Positions 13,184 through 60,904 of a stretch of 60,904 nt of DNA are shown here, piece after piece. The translations under genes were made by a program, and so were the position numbers. The stretch comes from an uncultured Candidatus Bathyarchaeia archaeon (GTDB taxonomy: Archaea > Thermoproteota > CALKCG01 > B24), in NCBI GenBank assembly GCA_964568845.1, contig CAZMSC010000008.1, positions 1 through 60,904 of the forward strand, given 5' to 3'. The notes under the pieces are model-generated. The model saw only the letters and a list, made by a program, of their open reading frames with translations, made no database searches and was not told the DNA's origin. Positions within the stretch are counted from its first letter, which is position 1; every line of letters begins with the position of its first letter.

Positions 13184-13846
13184 TCAAATATTTAAATTCG
13201 TAAGGGTTAAGTATAGACCTGCTATTATGGCGACTGCTGCTTCGATTTTTCCAATATGGGGTAGTATGCGTTTGAACTTTTTAATCAATATGCTTCCGAT
13301 AAATGATGAGAAAACTGTTAATAGAAATATGGGGGTGATCATGCCTGTTGAAAAGGCTATGAAAAGTATTAGAGGCTCTCCGCCAATCAGAGGGGCTGAA
13401 AGAACCATGAATAGAATCGGTAGAGAGCAGGTTAAAGAGTTAAAGGCGTAGATTAATCCGTAGAAGAATTGTTTGACGTAAAGGTTTTCTATATTCTTCA
13501 AACCTTTAAACCATACTTGAATTGACATTGATGTCTTACCACTTAAATTGACTATTCCGAAAACTATTAGAAATATTCCGAGAGCCGTACTTATAGCCGG
13601 AATAATCGATATGGCTTTTTCAATTAGATAGATGGGAATCAATACGAAGATGATCAGTACTGTTTCAAGCCCCATGGAAACGGTTAAACCGCTTTTTAAG
13701 CCTACAGTTAACGATTTCTTCATCCGTTTTTCGCCGATCCAGTTTACTATGTATACTGGGAGTAATGGGAAGGCGCACGGTGAGAGAAAGGCTGAGAAGC
13801 CTCCTAGGAAGGCTAGGATTGCTAAAGTTAGGTTCAAACGGTTCAT
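13184..13846 (-). CDS. ccdA: CcdA/DsbD-type thiol:disulfide transmembrane electron transporter
   Basis: FLSPCAFPLLP and a second Cys in SLTCSLP; about 6 TM segments; overlaps the upstream redoxin gene. Confidence 0.85.
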   Translation of the reverse strand: MNRLNLTLAILAFLGGFSAFLSPCAFPLLPVYIVNWIGEKRMKKSLTVGLKSGLTVSMGLETVLIIFVLIPIYLIEKAISIIPAISTALGIFLIVFGIVNLSGKTSMSIQVWFKGLKNIENLYVKQFFYGLIYAFNSLTCSLPILFMVLSAPLIGGEPLILFIAFSTGMITPIFLLTVFSSFIGSILIKKFKRILPHIGKIEAAVAIIAGLYLTLTNLNI

Positions 13847-14349
13847 CCCTTAAGTTCATTTAATAGTTGGGAAATTTCATCTATCAGTTTTGAGGCTTCT
13901 ACGACACCTTCGTGTCGAAACCTTATCCTACCACCATGATCTATGACGACAGTTGTCGGAAGCACTTTAACACTATAGTTTAAACCGACTTCATGGCTTT
14001 GAGCAAATATCCAGGTGGCTTCAAGGTTGTCCCTATATTCTGCGAGCGTTTTAGGGTCGTCCGAGGGTTCGATGCTTATGGAAACTATTACGATGGGCGT
14101 ATCCCTGAAACGTCCATAGACTAGTTTAAGCTCTTCAGTTTGAGCTTTACAGTATCTACACCATGTAGCCATAAACTCCACTATAACGATTTTCCCCTTT
14201 TGATCATCCAGTTTAAAGACAATACCATCCACATCTGTTATTGTGAACAGGGGTGCTTCAGTATTGCTCCTCATATTGAAGAAGACTATCAGTAGAACTG
14301 CTCCAGCGACTATTGGCAAAGCCATTAAGACTATTAATCTAGTGTTCAA
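13843..14349 (-). CDS. Membrane-anchored TlpA/ResA-like thioredoxin
   Basis: N-terminal TM segment, APLFTITDVDG, FMATWCRYC (CxxC), LPTTVVID. Confidence 0.88.
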   Translation of the reverse strand: MNTRLIVLMALPIVAGAVLLIVFFNMRSNTEAPLFTITDVDGIVFKLDDQKGKIVIVEFMATWCRYCKAQTEELKLVYGRFRDTPIVIVSISIEPSDDPKTLAEYRDNLEATWIFAQSHEVGLNYSVKVLPTTVVIDHGGRIRFRHEGVVEASKLIDEISQLLNELKG

Positions 14350-14395
14350 TCCAAATACTGCAAAGAACCGTTCAAACTCTTAAAAGTTTTCTGAC

Positions 14396-14423
14396 CCTAG
14401 TTAAGCAATCAGGCTTAACTAGG
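14396..14423. promoter_or_regulatory. 11-bp perfect inverted repeat (operator or hairpin) upstream of the tlpA-ccdA promoter
   Basis: CCTAGTTAAGC-aatcag-GCTTAACTAGG, next to the minus-strand TATA-like box at about 14378-14388. Confidence 0.5.
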
Positions 14424-14490
14424 ATCTAAGTCTTAAGAGGCACGTTTGGATATGTAATTTTGTGATTTTTCCTTTGAAAGGCATCGGGTA

Positions 14491-15864
14491 CTATTCTAGT
14501 TTCTCTCTCGCTGGTTCTATGTGGACTGTGACTATGGTTTCGGTAAGCTTCTTCCTTATAGCGTTTTCAATCTCCGATGCGATCTTATGGGCTTCCTCTA
14601 TGGGGATTCGCCCTTTGAAGTAGCAATCCAAGTTTATGTGGCGTTTCCCCTCGATAACGTATGTAGTTAATCCTTTCAGGCTTAAAACGTTCTGGAAGCT
14701 CTTTACAACTTCATTTACCGTCCGCCAGATTTCCATATCCTCAACAACGGGGCCTCTTGCTTTATCCTCTAGCGGCTCTACGTGGACGGTTATATGCTCG
14801 ATTACGTCTACAGTGTTTCTCAACTTTCTCTCTATCGTTTCTGCTATATCGTGGGCCTCTTGAACTGATAGTGCTGGATTTACACGTGCATGTAGTATTA
14901 CGTAGAGTTTGCCGTTGGAGTGGGCGATACTTACCTCATGTACATCTTTCACGCCTTCAACTTCTCTCGCCAGTTTCTCTATACGCTTCTCCATCGCTAT
15001 TCCATGCTCTAGCGGTTCAACGTGGACTACCACTTCGGGAGATTCAAAGCACTGTTTCAGCTTTTCCTCTATCTTGGATGCTAGTGCGTGGGATTCTTCA
15101 AAGCTGAAGTAATCTGGGGCTTGAACTGTTGCTTCTACGAATACTCTATTTCCAACTCTTCTAACTCTGATGCTTCTAACGTTAGATACCTCTTTGATTG
15201 AAGCTATTTCTCTTCTGACCTTCTCTACGATATCTCGCGATACGGCGTCGCTAAGCTCCATTCCACTCGTCCAAGCCAATTTAACGCTGAGGTAGCCTAA
15301 TGTGGCACTTAGGACAAGAGATGCTAAAGCATCTGAGGTTGGGAAGCCTAATACGGCAAATCCGAAGCCGAAAAGTGCTAGTAGGGTTGAACTTAAATCA
15401 GCCATCGCATGGTAGAGGTCTGCCTTAACGGTAATACCTTCCTTTTCGGCTTTATGGAGCATCGTAACCCTTAATACGTCTACGCATATTGTGTAGGCTA
15501 TTGCTATAAAACCTGCGAACCTCCATTCCTGGATAAGATATAGTTCATTATTCACAATCCTCAATATGGATTCGAATGCGAGAAGGAAAGCCGTTCCAAG
15601 GAGAATTACTCCACCGATGAAGCCGCCCAATGGTTCGATTTTTCCATGACCATAAGTATGATCTTCATCTGGAGGCTTCATGGAGGCCCTCGCCGCCAGT
15701 AGTAGGATGAACGTTGCCATGACGTCTAGAAGCGCGTGAGCACCATCGCTCAGTATCGCTAGACTGCCTACAAGTAGCCCTAGAAACATCTCTACAAAGA
15801 CGACACTAGCTATTGCGATTGCGGATATTTTCAATGTTCTAAGCTTTTCCCCTCCATAACGCAT
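14491..15864 (-). CDS. Cation diffusion facilitator with three tandem cytoplasmic metal-binding domains
   Basis: SLAILSDGAH, PPDEDHTYGHGKIE, HAMAD, then three repeats ending VHVEP, VHVEP and VHIEP. Confidence 0.9.
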   Translation of the reverse strand: MRYGGEKLRTLKISAIAIASVVFVEMFLGLLVGSLAILSDGAHALLDVMATFILLLAARASMKPPDEDHTYGHGKIEPLGGFIGGVILLGTAFLLAFESILRIVNNELYLIQEWRFAGFIAIAYTICVDVLRVTMLHKAEKEGITVKADLYHAMADLSSTLLALFGFGFAVLGFPTSDALASLVLSATLGYLSVKLAWTSGMELSDAVSRDIVEKVRREIASIKEVSNVRSIRVRRVGNRVFVEATVQAPDYFSFEESHALASKIEEKLKQCFESPEVVVHVEPLEHGIAMEKRIEKLAREVEGVKDVHEVSIAHSNGKLYVILHARVNPALSVQEAHDIAETIERKLRNTVDVIEHITVHVEPLEDKARGPVVEDMEIWRTVNEVVKSFQNVLSLKGLTTYVIEGKRHINLDCYFKGRIPIEEAHKIASEIENAIRKKLTETIVTVHIEPAREKLE

Positions 15865-15954
15865 TATCTTATCAACAGAATGCTCTTTAACGCGCGATTT
15901 AAGAATTACTAACAGACAGAGCTATAAGCGATAAGGTTTAAAAGCTGTAGATCA

Positions 15955-16113
15955 TATGCTCCTTTACAATGGAGACGCACCTACCGGAGCGGTAACACAT
16001 CCCTTGCTTCTAAGGTGGAATAAGATAAAGTGGGAACCCAAAGGACGTGGATCAGCCAATTAATGAATTACTTAGAGGCGGCATCCCCTAGCTTCAGTCG
16101 TGGAGAGTGTTAA
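15955..16113 (+). ncRNA. Orphan IS200/IS605 right end / TnpB omegaRNA-scaffold homolog
   Basis: Colinear with the reverse complement of 25074-25230. Identical blocks CCCTTGCTTCTAAGGTGG (16001-16018 vs 25171-25188) and CGTGGAGAGTGT; ends GTGTTAA vs GTGTCAA. Residual frame GAVTHPLLLRWNKIKWEPK vs TnpB GVVAHPLLLRWDGMRWEPK. Homology is clear; transcription is not shown. Confidence 0.7.
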
Positions 16114-16771
16114 CTTCTTACTACTTCACCATAGCTCTGTATGCTTATTCCATACTCTTTTTCCAACACCTCTCTTTCGGATAGGATCAGTGAATCTTTG
16201 GTGATTAGTTTCTCTCTCAATGCGACCGCAGTGGCCACTATGACGCAGTCCAAATAGTCAGGTATAAGCTTTCTAACCTTGAAAGAAGCTGCAATTATCT
16301 CGGGCTTGTAGAAGAGCTCAACTTTGAAAGTTCTAAAAATTGCTTCAATAGCTTCAGAAACGGAGTTAGCTGGAATCTTAAGTTTTGCGTCCTTCGCTTG
16401 AAGCTCAAAAATGGAAATTAAGCTGACTGTTATTTCCTCAAGCTTCCAATCAATCTTCCCGTCAGTAACCGCCTTTAACAAACCCGTATCGATTTTGATT
16501 CTTGCGAGGGTTAGAAGATAGGTCGTATTTAAGATCGTGGTTCTAACCTCCGTGATAACTCCTGCGAAACTTCTCAAAATCCTTAGCGGAGGTTTTTGCG
16601 ACTTTTCTGAGTATATTAAACGCATTATATCGTCTCCTCTCATCGACTCCCTTAATAGCTCGTTTAAAGCTTTCAAGAAGTCCTTAACTGTTCCATATCT
16701 CTTTAAAACTCCTCTTCAACAAGCTTTTTGCAGACATATCCTTCCAGCAAGACACTTGTACGTTTAGCCAT
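16110..16771 (-). pseudogene. Decayed VapBC-type toxin-antitoxin pair fused by frameshifts
   Basis: The antitoxin starts at ATG 16771 (MAKRTSVLLE...) and is broken by frameshifts. The ORF 16110..16676 joins an antitoxin part to a PIN domain whose first acidic residue is lost (ILNTTYLL vs LDT); DYLDCVIVATA and LITKD remain. Confidence 0.7.
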
Positions 16772-16955
16772 ATAAACGCTCAAACATTTAAATGCTTAAA
16801 TACAAATATAAAGTATTGCTTAAGATCGTCTTCATATGCTTTACAAACTGCTATACGATGAAGACCATGTTTACAGTGGTCAGAGGTATATGGTGGAATA
16901 GATATAAAAATTTATAAAGAATAGCTTTTTCCATTAGCTTTCAGAGATTTTACGT

Positions 16956-19900
16956 ATGAAATCGATAAGGTCTAAAGCCCTTTTAGAGATAGTGATGTTG
17001 ATACTGACCGCTACTTTTACTCTAGAGTTGAAAACACTGAGTGAGCCTGTTCAAGAACCGTGGAAAAGCTTAACGTCTATCAACATGGAGAGCGTAATGA
17101 AGCATGTTGAATTCTTCTCTTCGTTTGAAAGCCGGATGACTGGCTACCCCGGTTTCTACAAGGCCTATGAATACATAGTTGATGAACTCAATAGGACATT
17201 GGGAAATGTTGCTATCGAAGAGTTTGAGGTAACGGTTCCGATTCAACATTTCGCAGAAATCACCGTAGAATCCCCTGAACACAAAGTTTTAAATGCTTAC
17301 GCCTTCTGGCCTAATCTAGCCGAGTCGTGCTCTACACCAGAAGATGGATTGAGAGGACCATTATACTATGTGGGTTATGGGACTCTACCTGAAATGGATG
17401 GGAAGCCGATAGACGGGTCAATAGTTCTAATGGAGTTGAACAATAGGTGGTTTTGGAGGATAGCTCTTAACATAGGTGCTAAAGCTGCGATATTTGTAGA
17501 GCCTGAAGACTCTTTTAGAGGTGATTTTTGGGCGAAGGCTCTACAAATACCGATAAATTTCCCCAGGCTTTACGTGAAGAAAGAAGATGGAGATTACTTG
17601 AAGAAGCTCATCGAGAAGTATGGAAATTTAACTGTAACGTTGAAATCTTCCATAACTTGGGATAAGGTTAAGGCCTACAACGTATTGGCTGAGCTTAAAG
17701 GTACAGACCCGGAGCTTTCTAAAGAGTGCATCGTGCTTGCGGCTTACTACGACTCACTTTCAATAGTTCCAACTTCAGCTCCCGGAGCATCCGAGTCCTT
17801 GGGAATATCGCTTTTACTAGAATTGGCTAGAGTTTTCAAAGAGAACCCTCCTAAGAGAAGCATATTGTTTGTGGCTTTGGGAGGTCATGGATTGGGATTG
17901 GCTGGGGCTAGAGAATTTGTATGGAAGCATTTTCAAGAAATTGGTGGAAAATATAAGCTGTTGATAAGCTTAGACCTTTCCACTGAGAGTTCAGACCTAG
18001 CTGTACAATTCTACGGAGGCTTTTACGCACTTCATGGAACTGTCCCAGGATACGAGACGAAGTTTCAATGGCTGAGAGATAAAATCTTTAATGAATATCT
18101 CAAGCTTTATAGAACCTATGGTGGGCAGATCAGGCTTTTCGACTCACTCTCCTTAACGAACATTTACTATGAGCCAACTCCATTATACGTCGATAGTGAA
18201 CCGTTTGTGCTGGCTGGAGGAATCGGCTTCACATTCAGGACATTCAACGTATTTAGAAGACATCTCTTTACGCCTTTAGATAGACTAGAAGACATAGAAA
18301 TAGATAGACTTAAGCCACAAGCTGAGTACATAGCCTTAACTCTTAGAATGCTTTGCGAAGAACCTAAACTAGCGGTATATTCTAAGCCTACAGTTATAGG
18401 AGTAGGTTATGGATTTGTCACTTTAAGCGGTTACGTTCAAGAGTATAATTTAACGAGAGGCTGGTATCAGAAGGTTCCCAACGCCCTCGTACAGTTACCT
18501 TTCTGGCCTACATTGATAGTTGAAAAAACGGATGAAAACGGCTATTTTCAGATTAAAGGACTTAGAGCAGGGGCATACTACTGGTTTAACGGCTTCATAG
18601 TTGACAGATATGGACATGTGTTGGGTACAAACGAGTACGGAGGCTTTGCACCCCCACTGCCGAACTTATTCGGCATAACGATATATAGACCAGACGCTTT
18701 CGTAAACATTAAAGTATTCCGATGCGGAAGCATACACATATCATACGTAGTAGATCCGAGAACCTTCTACACACCTTACGGTTCATATACTGTTTTAAAC
18801 AACTTCAAAACACACGTGACTTTAATTACCTATGGACCTGTTTATACTGACGGTTACGACTTTCAGATATTCATACCCCCTGACACTCCAGTGGAAGTAT
18901 TCCTAAGGACTGGTGGATCTCAAGAAAACTATGCAATCTTACTTAACATAACAGAGTCCAACATAGATGGCACTGGATATTTGGTTCAACCTGGAGAAAT
19001 TCTCAGAATTAAAAACCTAGTGTTAGAGGCCCCTAAAAGCTTCTACATTTTAAATAAAGAGAGGCTGGATAACCTCCATAGTTTTTACGCCTTTAGCATA
19101 AGACCTGAAGAATACCATAGACAGGCTGAAGATATGTTGCAAGAAGCTTATGAGGCGTTTAACAACATGCGTTATAGCGAGGCTTACTGTAAGGCCGTAC
19201 ATGCTTGGTGTTTGGAAGCTTATGCCTACAGTGCCATAAAAGATTTTATCGTAGATCTAGCCTACAATTCGTCTCTAACGTACATTTTCACGCTACCTCT
19301 GATCATAGTGGTGACTATGGGGTTTTTGAGGAGGAGAGGCGGGGGATTGAAAACTTTAGCAGTTCAATTGGCGTTTTCGCTATTCTTCATGGCGGTTCTA
19401 TACTTGTACAGCCCCGGCTTCCACGTTGCAACAAACATCTACGTGATGCTGGGCTCTCTTTTCATAATTGCCCTCGTAGTTCTCGTCTTGATAATTCTAT
19501 GGAGGGAGTTCTCGACAGCTTTAAGCTTCATCAGGAGGAGGTTTCTGAGGATTCCCTACGATGAGAGCGACGCTAGATTAGGCGTTAAAGAGCTGACGTT
19601 TAGAATAAAAAGATTTCTTGAAGAGGATAAGGCTAGATTCTTAGCAATAGTGCTCATTTCTTCTCTGGCTACGTGTACTTTTCTATTAACATCATTCTGT
19701 TCAAGTTACACTTACGTCTTTGAATCTTCTAAGATTTTTGAAGCAGAAGAAGGCAGAATTCTCCTCAGAAAATGGCCTTGGGACGTCTTCGCTGAAAGGC
19801 ACGTAGATCTTTTAAAGATAGAGCTTGCAGAAAACGCCTTGGTATCTAGCAGGGTTTGGACGTACCCTTCCTATCAAGAGCTCAGGATAAATTTAAATTC

Positions 19901-25050: not shown

Positions 25051-25089
25051 TTTCACGGCTTTACCTTGAATCATTGACACTCTCCACGG

Positions 25090-26319
25090 CTAAAGCCGGG
25101 AGATTCTTGCTTCTAAGGCTCTCATCAGTTGGCTGTTCACAGCCCTTTTAGGCTCCCACCTCATCCCGTCCCACCTTAGAAGCAAGGGGTGTGCCACCAC
25201 CCCGTTAATGCTACCTCCGTGGAGGTAGCCTATATTTAAGACGCCTACGGCATCCCTATGTGCCTCTAACCCGCAGTCTAGACATTTGAAAAGTCTTCCT
25301 TTGGTTGTTATGTTTTTAGAGTGGCAGAGTGGACATTTGCTTGACGTTCCGTATTCGCTTTTCTCCTCTACTTTTATGCCGTACTCTTCGGCTTTTTCTC
25401 TGAACCTTCTAACTATGTAGTTGAAGCTCCAGAAGTTGTTTATCATGGCATTTGTTTTACTGCCATACTTGTTGTTTCTTATGTCCTTCAACCTTCCAAG
25501 CACTATCTTTGAAATGCCGAGTCGATAGGCATCTTCAACTATGGTTCTTATCATGGTGTTTATCGTATGCCTGAACCTTCTCTGACGGATTCTGTATAGT
25601 TTCCTAAGCTTCCTTGACGTTTTAGCCTCGTTGATTCTTGCTAGATTGCTCCGCTCCTTCGCTATCCGTCTTGTCCAGTACCACCAGTCTGATAGAACGG
25701 CTCTACTTGAGAAGGCTATGGGTTGCCTCAAACCTTCAAACCATACTGTGGCAAGGTTTATTACGCCAAGGTCTATGTAGAGGGGCTTGTTGCCTCCCTT
25801 AGGCGGAGGCTTCTCGACTTTAACGCTCATAAAGCCCCTCCACACCCCACCCACTCCATCGTAGATTATCTCAAGTCTCCCTTGCTCGCCCTTCCACTTC
25901 AGCTCACCTTTATATTTCAGCTTGAATCCTTTTGGAAGATAGAGGTATTTCTCGTCAATCTTGTAGCAGTCGTTTCTTACAACCATTCTCAGCTCTCTTC
26001 TACCGTTCCTTTTCCAGTATCTAGGCATTGAAACTCTGGTTATATGCTCTGGAAGTTTGCCCTTAGACTCAAGTTCTTTAAGTTTAAGGAAGCTTCTCCA
26101 AGCCTCATTATTCTTGTTTATTATCTGCTGGGCTGTTGCTGATCCTATTAGCGGAGCGTATTTAGCGTAGAGATGCTTAGGATACCATTCAAACTTCTTG
26201 TACCTTATGTAGGCTTGTCTCTTCTCAAAGTTCACTTCATTGTAGAGTCTAGCGCAATTGTCTGCAAGCTCCCATAGAGCTGGATGATCCTCAACTATGA
26301 AGGTGTTTGTTCGCTCCAT
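25090..26319 (-). CDS. tnpB: RNA-guided endonuclease TnpB (409 aa from MERTNTF)
   Basis: RuvC-I YIDLGV, zinc ribbon CPLC...CLDC, RuvC-III HRDAVGVLNI; N-terminal LYNEVNF and SATAQQII. Confidence 0.92.
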   Translation of the reverse strand: MERTNTFIVEDHPALWELADNCARLYNEVNFEKRQAYIRYKKFEWYPKHLYAKYAPLIGSATAQQIINKNNEAWRSFLKLKELESKGKLPEHITRVSMPRYWKRNGRRELRMVVRNDCYKIDEKYLYLPKGFKLKYKGELKWKGEQGRLEIIYDGVGGVWRGFMSVKVEKPPPKGGNKPLYIDLGVINLATVWFEGLRQPIAFSSRAVLSDWWYWTRRIAKERSNLARINEAKTSRKLRKLYRIRQRRFRHTINTMIRTIVEDAYRLGISKIVLGRLKDIRNNKYGSKTNAMINNFWSFNYIVRRFREKAEEYGIKVEEKSEYGTSSKCPLCHSKNITTKGRLFKCLDCGLEAHRDAVGVLNIGYLHGGSINGVVAHPLLLRWDGMRWEPKRAVNSQLMRALEARISRL

Positions 26320-26545
26320 TTTAGACGCCTTTTTTTGGGCTTCAATGTATTTTTCAATGGTCTCTTTAGAGACCGCTCCTATTGTCGAAACGTAGTAGCT
26401 GTGTGTCCATAGGGATGGCAACTTAAGCAGTTCGGGGAACTCCTTTCTAAGGATGTTCGAACTCCTGCCCTTGATTCTCCTCACGATCTTGTGAACAGGT
26501 ATCGTTGGATGGGCCGATATGAACAGATGGACGTGATCAGGGTTT
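26320..26545 (-). pseudogene. tnpA: 5'-truncated IS200-type Y1 transposase
   Basis: HUH motif PDHVHLF, IKGRSS, LWTHSYYVSTIG, catalytic YIEAQ; the N-terminal part is missing. Confidence 0.88.
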
Positions 26546-26722
26546 ATGGTAATCTGTAAAATACTGTTTAATTCCATGTTTTAATGCAAACGCTTTAACG
26601 TGGTTAAGGGTTGGAGAGGCTACGGCGATTATTTCACAATCGCCACATCTTCTAAATGCGTTGGCATGAATATCCGCTACGAAGCCGCTGCCAATTACTC
26701 CAACACCGACTCTTCTACTCAT
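26537..26722 (-). pseudogene. N-terminal fragment of a Gfo/Idh/MocA oxidoreductase
   Basis: VGVGVIGSGFVADIH...YFTDY, cut off by the junction with tnpA. Confidence 0.8.
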
Positions 26723-59166: not shown

Positions 59167-59665
59167 AGTCTAACTACTATTAAAGGCAAAGTTTACATAA
59201 AAACATTATCAACAACAATTATATCAAAATACGAACGATTTCTCAAAATGTTTAACAGTATAAAATAGTACATTGTTGGGTTGCATTAGGGGTGTTTAAA
59301 ATCTATGGCAACTCTGACAGATTCGGAAACTCAGACTATTGTACTACTTCATTCAGTATTAAACGTCATGAAACCACTATAATAATCTCTTTAAGGAACC
59401 TCCTAAAGTTAAAGAACCCACATATGAAGAATTTTCCCATAAACTATCTTTGAACGATTCAAGTCTAAAATCCTTAAATGACTTTCATCGAATTTCTACT
59501 CAAGAACGATCTAGTGCTCCGAATATTGAACCATTAGACGACTCCCAAACTCCTAAAAAAGCCGAGTTTTCACAGCCTAAAACCTCGACCTTCCTCATCC
59601 TCGCTCCTACGCCTTTGTCAGCAGTTTCAGTAAGGTTTAAATAGTGTTTGCTTACTTAGGTTCTA

Positions 59666-59863
59666 TTGATGAAGGAAGATTACGAAGAGCTGTTGAAGCC
59701 GAGGGATGTGGCTAAAATCTTCAATATTACGACGAAAACGCTCTGGGAGTGGCAGAGGAAGGGGATTATCAAAGCAGTCAGGCTCCCTACTGGAAAGCTC
59801 CGCTATCCTAGAAGCGAGGTAGATAGGCTGTGGAAGCAGTTAAGAGCTACAAAATCCCAGTAG
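59666..59863 (+). CDS. MerR-like/IS607-type HTH protein without a recombinase domain
   Basis: LLKPRDVAKIFNITTKTLWEW...GIIKAVRLPTGKLRY; overlaps the tnpB start. Confidence 0.82.
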   Translation: MMKEDYEELLKPRDVAKIFNITTKTLWEWQRKGIIKAVRLPTGKLRYPRSEVDRLWKQLRATKSQ

Positions 59864-60904
59864 ATGCTCCTAAAGACCTAATAGGCTCGCATTTCAAGGC
59901 TAAGAGAAGGGCTTTAGAAGCTGTTCTTAACCACGTCAAATTTAATGGGAAAGCTCATTTAGACTTCAAAAACGATGATAGGAGGAGGCTTAGGGACGAG
60001 TTGCTGAAAAACTGGAGGTATTCGAAGCACTACGTCGATTCGGCCGTCAACTCAGTCATCGGGTTGGTTAGGGGATGGGTAACGCTCTACAATAGGGGGA
60101 GGGCTGAGAATCTTCCTGAGATGACTAAGCAGACGGTTTACGTCAAGAATACGCTCTTCAGCTTCAAGAGTGGGGTTTCTGAGGATAAGCATCGAGCCGA
60201 ACAAGAGGCATCTTGAAGTTGATTTAAGCGAGCATCCGTGGATCCCTAAAGACTTCGACGGACTTGGAGGGTTGATTTTAAAAGAGAAAGAGCTCATAAT
60301 CACGGTTAAGAAAAAAGTTGAGCCTAAAGCTGATGAATGGTCTTCATTCGACGTGAACCTGACGAACGTAACGGCGTTAATTAACGGAAGAGTAGAGAGG
60401 TATAGCTTTAAGGAGCTTTACCACATCAACAGGGTTTACGAGGTTAAGCGTCAGAGAATGCAGAAACTGTCTAAGCTTAAGCCTAAAACCTCTAAGAGAC
60501 TGATACGTAAGTATTCTAGCCGTGAGAGGAATAGGGCTGGAGACTTCATGCATAAACTGACCACTAGGATAGCTGGAAGATTTAAAGAATCTAACTCTGG
60601 AGCGATAATGGAAGGGCTCAAAGGGATAAAGCACAATGTTCTAAACCGCTCTAAGAAGCAGAACAGGAAGCTCTCGAAGTGGAGTGCTAGGACGTTCCAG
60701 TTCATGCTGGAATACAAGCTGAAGTGGCTTGAACTACCGGTTAAGTACGTTAATGCTGAGGACACTTCTAAAACCTGCCCACTCTGTTCAGGAAGCATGG
60801 CTTCCTATGAGGGCAGGCTTATGAAGTGCGGAAAATGCAGTACAGTAACGGATAGAGACGTAGTAGCAGTTTTAAACCTTCAGATGCGGGGAGCAGGGTT
60901 CCCC
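59830..60904 (+). pseudogene. tnpB: TnpB with a single extra-base frameshift near 60176-60178; runs off the window end
   Basis: After removing one base the frame continues SGVLRISIEP...SFDVNL...AIMEGLKGI...TSKTCPLC...CGKC...DRDVVAVLNLQMRGAGFP. Confidence 0.85.

Follow-up and report, generated by a model that had tools for sequence, protein, structure and literature searches.

The sequence at 15982–16113 (plus strand) of the window, by which we mean the whole 60 904-nt stretch analysed here (contig C8 of a 1.55 Mb, 88% complete assembly), is by its homology the omegaRNA-scaffold part of a TnpB element, with a right boundary that is that of its family. We regard it as probably a fossil, the decaying tail of an IS605-family element (TnpA/TnpB), and not as a sequence kept up for use as a guide RNA. 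The first-pass annotation had proposed a stand-alone omegaRNA with its own TATA-like box and offered a plain IS scar as the alternative; the latter proved the better supported reading, by neutral-like decay, altered transposase motifs, a pseudogenised cassette, lineage-specificity and the lack of a target. The leading competing explanation, which we consider unlikely, is a working stand-alone omegaRNA that would have captured a host promoter, would load the TnpB encoded 9 kb away and would target TTAC followed by CTTCTTACTACT in element-free vapC; loss of its transposase motifs would then fix the remnant in place. The DNA is present in four sequencing runs, three of them hot-spring metagenomes; no RNA run was listed as containing it, which has no bearing on expression either way.

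The remnant was identified by BLASTN, family alignment and covariance model. With BLASTN, 15982–16113 (+) aligned to 25207–25074 (−) over 134 columns at 73% identity (E 3e-14), and the family covariance model matched 15954–16113 with 81.6 bits (E ~5e-21); these scores rule out chance similarity to an IS605 end. Colinearity had been put at about 160 bp: the homology stands, but it is firm over ~134–146 nt, with 15952–15969 being a direct repeat that matches host DNA. The 18-nt (16001–16018) and 12-nt (16099–16110) blocks reported as identical between the orphan and the element at 25074 are indeed present, the longest identical run lying within chance expectation (P=0.11–0.47). The coding part comprises TnpB residues 367–391 only, just past the RuvC-III aspartate D356, in agreement with the description of a copy with no tnpB body. 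At 15968–15981 (+) a weakly aligned 5′ stub may be what decay has left of the 3′ arm of the tnpB tail's hairpin 1, or else the start of a left end joined to the tail; no left-end match was found there, TTAC and this ambiguous stub being all that the locus holds. Homology to the tnpB 3′ end and right end stops at the family's end motif, past which the flank shifts abruptly, in the orphan to vapC. The orphan is a single copy in the assembly, and its diagnostic sequence pattern was found in 1 of 401 genomes, at its own locus. Origin in a separate TTAA-ending subfamily found no support, given this pattern and a best identity of 75% among 70 members (members against their consensus, 81–100%, median 91%), in a check that took in 80 of the 191 metagenome relatives. 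Rfam gave no matches at E<=1 across the window, intact element included, the HgcC and sotRNA models thus being unmatched.

The parent family is of the IS608 type, with TAM TTAC and end TCAA, and is common among hot-spring archaea. Loci of related TnpBs were sampled from metagenomes (80 of 191) and from genomes (33), and all 87 right ends that were placed stop at one column, nearly all with TCAA and with unrelated flanks between sites; the right-end order is GAAT, hairpin, TCAA. The TAM was read from the left ends, 51 of 55 of which carry TTAC 14–22 nt upstream of AAAG (in the remaining four, it stands at 13 nt in two, as a distant copy only in one and is absent from one). Because the family ends in TCAA and the flanks diverge right after it, a guide would start at 16114, as first annotated; the family alignment and covariance model likewise bear out the view that the retained part is the omegaRNA scaffold region. 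Several members within L020–L110 (for example L040, L051, L082, L088, L108 and L109) carry a small-protein ORF or an internally deleted tnpA in place of a full tnpA between left end and tnpB.

The cognate omegaRNA/right end, that of the IS605 element at 25074–25235 (−), is intact and scored 191 bits, a value obtained on a sequence belonging to the model's training set; an intact copy in genome G002, outside that set, scored 181 bits. The window element's tnpB (25090–26319, −; 409 aa) is open, keeps the family's conserved acidic motifs and is the sole full-length copy of its family in the 88% complete assembly. Where the RuvC-II residue usually stands it has a Gly, with a conserved Glu farther along the protein; this may be a rearranged active site. 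This TnpB would be a compatible effector, in favour of a working stand-alone omegaRNA, but the state of its own element counts against one: left end and promoter region have been lost, and no promoter-grade site was found upstream of tnpB (best forward score, 1.3 bits). The element's tnpA is 5′-truncated (26332–26562, −; residues 52–128) and fused in frame to tnpB; this fragment is the sole tnpA, and no intact one was found, in the 88% complete assembly. In the fusion (25090–26577, −) the tnpA stop is bridged by an altered A-run, and the fused ORF of 495 aa begins in non-IS DNA.

A structure model was derived from a 55-row alignment and column conservation from 70 rows. Double changes were seen in 13 of the 44 pairs of the 55-row alignment, and 0 of 500 shuffles scored as high, so that the covariation is genuine. 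A five-pair pseudoknot was predicted between the hairpin 2 loop (UGGCA) and the 3′ end (UGUCA), with 99–100% of cells pairing; changes in the family rows are one-sided only, with no double-sided change, and the pseudoknot, added to the structure, is predicted on the analogy of that of ISDra2, which pairs the last scaffold bases (PMC10097598, in the available part of the article). Conservation reaches 90% or more of the 70 rows in 101 columns; the orphan is changed at 22 of these, members at 0–9, and 12 of the 22 changes are G>A or C>T. Eight of its 40 pairs are broken (0–5 in members, n=55), where random placement of the observed substitution types on the family consensus predicted 9.66 ± 1.99 (P=0.28); three double-sided pairs were kept against 1.94 expected (P=0.30), counting private changes alone gave P=0.41–0.65, and without the pseudoknot 7 of 33 pairs were broken against 7.8 expected (P 0.44). 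Family members showed 37% of the expected broken pairs and P<0.05 in 27 of 55, values that are circular because the structure was derived from them; the test does have power, since two better-kept copies outside the alignment scored P=0.001 and 0.01. Taking each member as ancestor gave median P values of 0.055 and 0.015, in a test biased towards significance because each member's own selected variation is counted. The MFE of the orphan was −26 against −43 to −64 kcal/mol, and its fold z of +1.03 was no better than that of shuffles, against −5.15 for the intact copy. Selection on the structure may exist, but no overall signal of it was obtained, and this, together with the 22 changed conserved columns, argues against a working stand-alone omegaRNA.

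Other features of the structure would point the opposite way. All five pairs that the predicted pseudoknot forms with the 3′ end are kept in the orphan, whose scaffold covers the core elements (5′ strand, UAACA against family UGGCA, 15993–15997, +; 3′ strand with the element end, 16108–16113, +). One is kept through the double change G15994A + C16111T, by which the change of the otherwise invariant TCAA to TTAA is matched in the hairpin 2 loop; in simulations an intact pseudoknot with a double change arose in 5.7% of cases (0.057, post hoc) and an intact one alone in 24.5%. Two further double changes lie in the middle stem (16022–16023 with 16060–16061), and the long stem keeps 10 of 11 pairs, hairpin 1 being largely lost. 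Population contigs revealed three haplotypes at 16036–16037 (runs X2, X3) plus a change at 15998; a stem position of the orphan is polymorphic in the population, which by itself would favour the fossil reading. The allele of run X4 restores a small hairpin by a compensatory pair and has 6 of 40 pairs broken against 8.83 expected (P=0.12). The kept pseudoknot and long stem, the further double changes and the better-paired second allele would speak for a working stand-alone omegaRNA, as would a scaffold length of ~145 nt when 116 nt suffice for ISDra2 TnpB (accessible text of PMC10097598), and it is mainly because of the pseudoknot that we give a trans-acting role any weight. Stems broken without compensation had been named beforehand as evidence against a guide RNA; in the orphan eight pairs are broken, and one pair of the predicted pseudoknot is kept by compensation.

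The right-end motifs of the transposase are altered. Guide motif G_R, a name given for IS608 (PMC5934647, part of the text), reads GCAT at 16081–16084 (+) against GAAT in the family, the A being invariant in 70 of 70 rows. The right-end hairpin (16084–16106, +) is present, as first described, but not intact: on structure comparison two of its nine pairs are broken and two turned to G-U, and as DNA it folds at −1.5 kcal/mol against −8.0 for the intact copy. The element ends in TTAA, the complement of which is the vapC stop codon. With GAAT and TCAA changed and no left end nearby, the orphan is predicted to be beyond the reach of TnpA; since the assembly's only tnpA is moreover fragmentary, mobility would have been lost.

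A genome-wide search for further orphan copies, as proposed in the first-pass annotation, was productive, with eight covariance-model matches in the present assembly, ten in G002 and matches in 6 of 17 genomes overall. These remnants vary in length and damage, which is the pattern of ordinary decay. Two species share a second remnant, at one and the same position and with a common flank (G000:C15:25585–25748, L139; G003:C9:36026–36174, L135); in G003 it begins with hairpin 1, the additional piece of tnpB that lies between two GCTACCTTCAAG copies being absent there, and the predicted pseudoknot is broken in both. The omegaRNA tail at G002:C13:1769–1930 (L138), behind an internally deleted tnpB, is well preserved (145 bits; conservation of pairs, P=0.001), and as a candidate functional omegaRNA without a protein it is preferable to the copy in the window. 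G000:C11:29334–29471 (L145) is a PATE-like mini-element with TTAC, in which a left end runs into the omegaRNA's 3′ half at a GGGATGA common to both, and G000:C13:11994 (−) is a left-end-like sequence with no genes behind it.

The orphan lies between a cation-efflux gene (14491–15864, −) and an M28 peptidase gene (16956, +), beside a PIN-domain vapC ending at 16110 (−). This vapC, called dead in the first-pass annotation, is indeed a pseudogene (16110–16538, −), full length, with ACG as start codon in the present assembly and Asn in place of Asp4, the first acidic position, which is Asp in 44 of 48 stored sequences, the four with Asn being the cluster of this very gene; an 82%-identical vapC (P0002 cluster; P0002/P0052/P0053) likewise ends in Ser. 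The vapB-like antitoxin pseudogene (16535–16771, −) carries two frameshifts in a three-frame translation against intact homologues. Remnant and vapBC make up an insert of ~880 bp bounded by direct repeats: the left copy (TCATATGCTCCTTTACAA, 15952–15969, +) matches the single copy at the G003 empty site, and the right copy (TCATATGCTTTACAA, 16832–16846, +) is 3 nt shorter. The left repeat holds a TTAC (15964–15967) that is either the original TAM or a piece of the host repeat. Neither remnant nor vapBC was found upstream of the M28 gene in any of five same-genus genomes (the G005 contig being short); G003 has the efflux and M28 genes with nothing of the insert between them, and a related contig in two metagenomes also lacks it, probably representing G003's lineage and hence not independent. 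In G001 and G004, thioredoxin-like and membrane-protein genes directly precede the M28 gene (window region 13184–16956). It would seem that the efflux gene (G000, the present genome, and G003) and then vapBC with the remnant (G000) were inserted here one after the other. The same remnant was absent beside vapC homologues at 26 homologue loci and two empty-site loci; L176 has an unrelated remnant ~190 nt downstream of a distant vapC. That the copy is lineage-specific weighs against a working stand-alone omegaRNA.

Under the fossil reading, an IS608-type element probably entered vapC at its stop codon, facing the other way, and the element end became the new stop. Such an insertion would fit the TAM, because the empty site, TTAC immediately followed by CTTCTT, also reads a stop in the same frame. 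The family does not as a rule insert at stop codons, by a comparison in which 2 of 62 flanks were open for ~100 codons compared with 2 and 1 in the other antisense frames. Loss of the left end, of tnpA and of almost the whole of tnpB would then have left the tail that now sits with dead vapBC in the 880-bp insert, between the efflux gene and the M28 peptidase operon. Direct repeats so nearly identical are hard to square with long decay at the present site; standing beside a 27%-diverged remnant, they suggest that the tail arrived already worn, with vapBC.

Upstream of the remnant lies a BRE/TATA-like box (GATAAGGTTTAAAAGC, 15930–15945, +). On a promoter matrix built from 40 tRNA upstream regions it scored 9.6 bits, which is tRNA-promoter-like (quartiles 9.0–12.8), and at the usual spacing (commonest, 32–33 nt) transcription would start near 15968–15970, the 5′ edge of the remnant; with a crude mask, ~1.4% of non-coding positions carry a comparably strong, so-placed site. 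The box is host sequence outside the element, because it lies within DNA homologous to the G003 intergenic region, which scores −2.0. The element thus does not own its TATA-like box, but the site is promoter-grade, in the present genome only, and at the right distance. The motif shared with the element at 59632 is real over 10 nt (AAGGTTTAAA) but generic, with 56 occurrences in the assembly, and the 59632 element is of another TnpB family (23.5% identity), its box preceding an HTH gene; an element-specific promoter motif was therefore rejected. That element (59632–60904, +) has the HTH gene behind a AAGGTTTAAAT box and a tnpB that is divided between two frames and truncated where the contig stops; C13 and C32 carry related copies. 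Transcription of the remnant from the host box is plausible; the orphan would then be carried as a passenger, its RNA predicted to be weakly folded. The box would favour a working stand-alone omegaRNA, against which it must be set that two of the eight other remnants are likewise preceded, at no more than 100 nt, by a site of equal strength (one at 35 nt) and that this case was picked for having one.

The would-be guide (16114–16133, +) is flanking sequence antisense to the last codons of vapC. The antisense relation pointed out earlier is correct by position but demonstrates no targeting, because the guide simply is the flank. Matches next to the common TAM, suggested as a check, did not materialise: no TTAC-adjacent target was found in the 88% complete assembly (best TAM-adjacent sites with 5–6 mismatches in 16 nt) and TTAC with 14 nt of guide gave 0 matches in viral contigs, where the 17-mer guide alone matched 17 times, never beside TTAC, which we read as chance. 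This again speaks against a working stand-alone omegaRNA, whose target one would expect to be the present vapC in an allele free of the element; on its side, protein-less omegaRNA-encoding elements are on record (PMC10055086, PMC10691335, as far as the available text of each goes). A variant that we consider quite unlikely is early domestication, in which loss of the TnpA motifs, the compensated pseudoknot and the captured promoter would together have turned the tail against incoming intact vapBC alleles, with TnpB acting in trans. The pseudoknot and middle-stem double changes, the better-paired allele and the tRNA-grade box at the 5′ edge are the signals that would tell against a fossil.

It is improbable, in our estimation, that the locus produces an antisense RNA independent of TnpB, with the promoter reading through into vapC to damp the toxin and the remnant serving as a stable 5′ structure. 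The promoter faces the vapC 3′ end, no sigma-70-type terminator was detected in 15850–16300 (by a scan not built for archaea), and a frameshifted vapB would once have made silencing of vapC useful; against this, the arrangement is not conserved in relatives, and nothing is left to silence because vapC has lost its start codon and its catalytic-type Asp. A still-mobile PATE-like mini-element of TAM, left end and right end, moved by TnpA in trans, is highly improbable: TTAC directly precedes the remnant, the next bases resemble some left-end starts and a clear PATE of the same family exists at C11:29334–29471, but the locus has neither a left-end hairpin nor an AAAG guide, GAAT and TCAA are altered and the right-end hairpin is broken, and a single copy occurs in an 88% complete assembly with no intact tnpA.

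As a decaying fossil the orphan is of small import, such tails being common in the genus. It also offers a cheap test case of whether archaeal protein-less tnpB tails still program TnpB in trans, with a natural positive control 9 kb away, two alleles differing in pairing and a defined TAM, TTAC. For the TnpB family itself, which is widespread in thermophilic archaea and had no Rfam match, a structure with pseudoknot is now predicted and a TAM given.

IS608 is described, in the part of PMC5934647 available, as having the cleavage motifs TTAC (TAM/C_L) and TCAA (C_R) and the guides AAAG and GAAT. The parent family uses the same four motifs, whereas the orphan consists of the last ~145 nt, with GCAT and TTAA and without left end or genes. 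Going by the accessible portions of the reports on PATEs and PATE-derived ncRNAs in Geobacillus (PMC10055086) and Halobacterium (VNG_R0052; PMC4615843), the orphan resembles these in being a protein-less IS200/IS605 derivative in which the omegaRNA/right-end region is retained and which proteins encoded elsewhere could serve. PATEs, in contrast, join left to right end and are predicted to be mobile; the orphan has damaged ends and lacks a recognisable left end with hairpin and AAAG, an intact right end and near-identical copies at multiple sites. Stand-alone omegaRNAs that are mobilised and have proved active in trans are on record (PMC10691335, available text), and the partial texts of PMC12558985 and PMC11043419 contain nothing on stand-alone copies. 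On this partial record, the orphan is like them a scaffold with a flank-derived guide, apart from the effector gene and with a compatible effector in the genome, but it is single, 25–27% diverged, partly unpaired and known from sequence alone. Lastly, archaeal intergenic sRNAs that resemble tnpB 3′ ends include sRK48 and sRK52 of Pyrococcus abyssi, HgcC and the sotRNAs (PMC4615843, in the sections available). Those were seen as transcripts, whereas the orphan is known as DNA and has no Rfam match; as far as those sections describe them, it shares with them an intergenic tail, a right-end hairpin with a UUCA tetraloop and an archaeal host.
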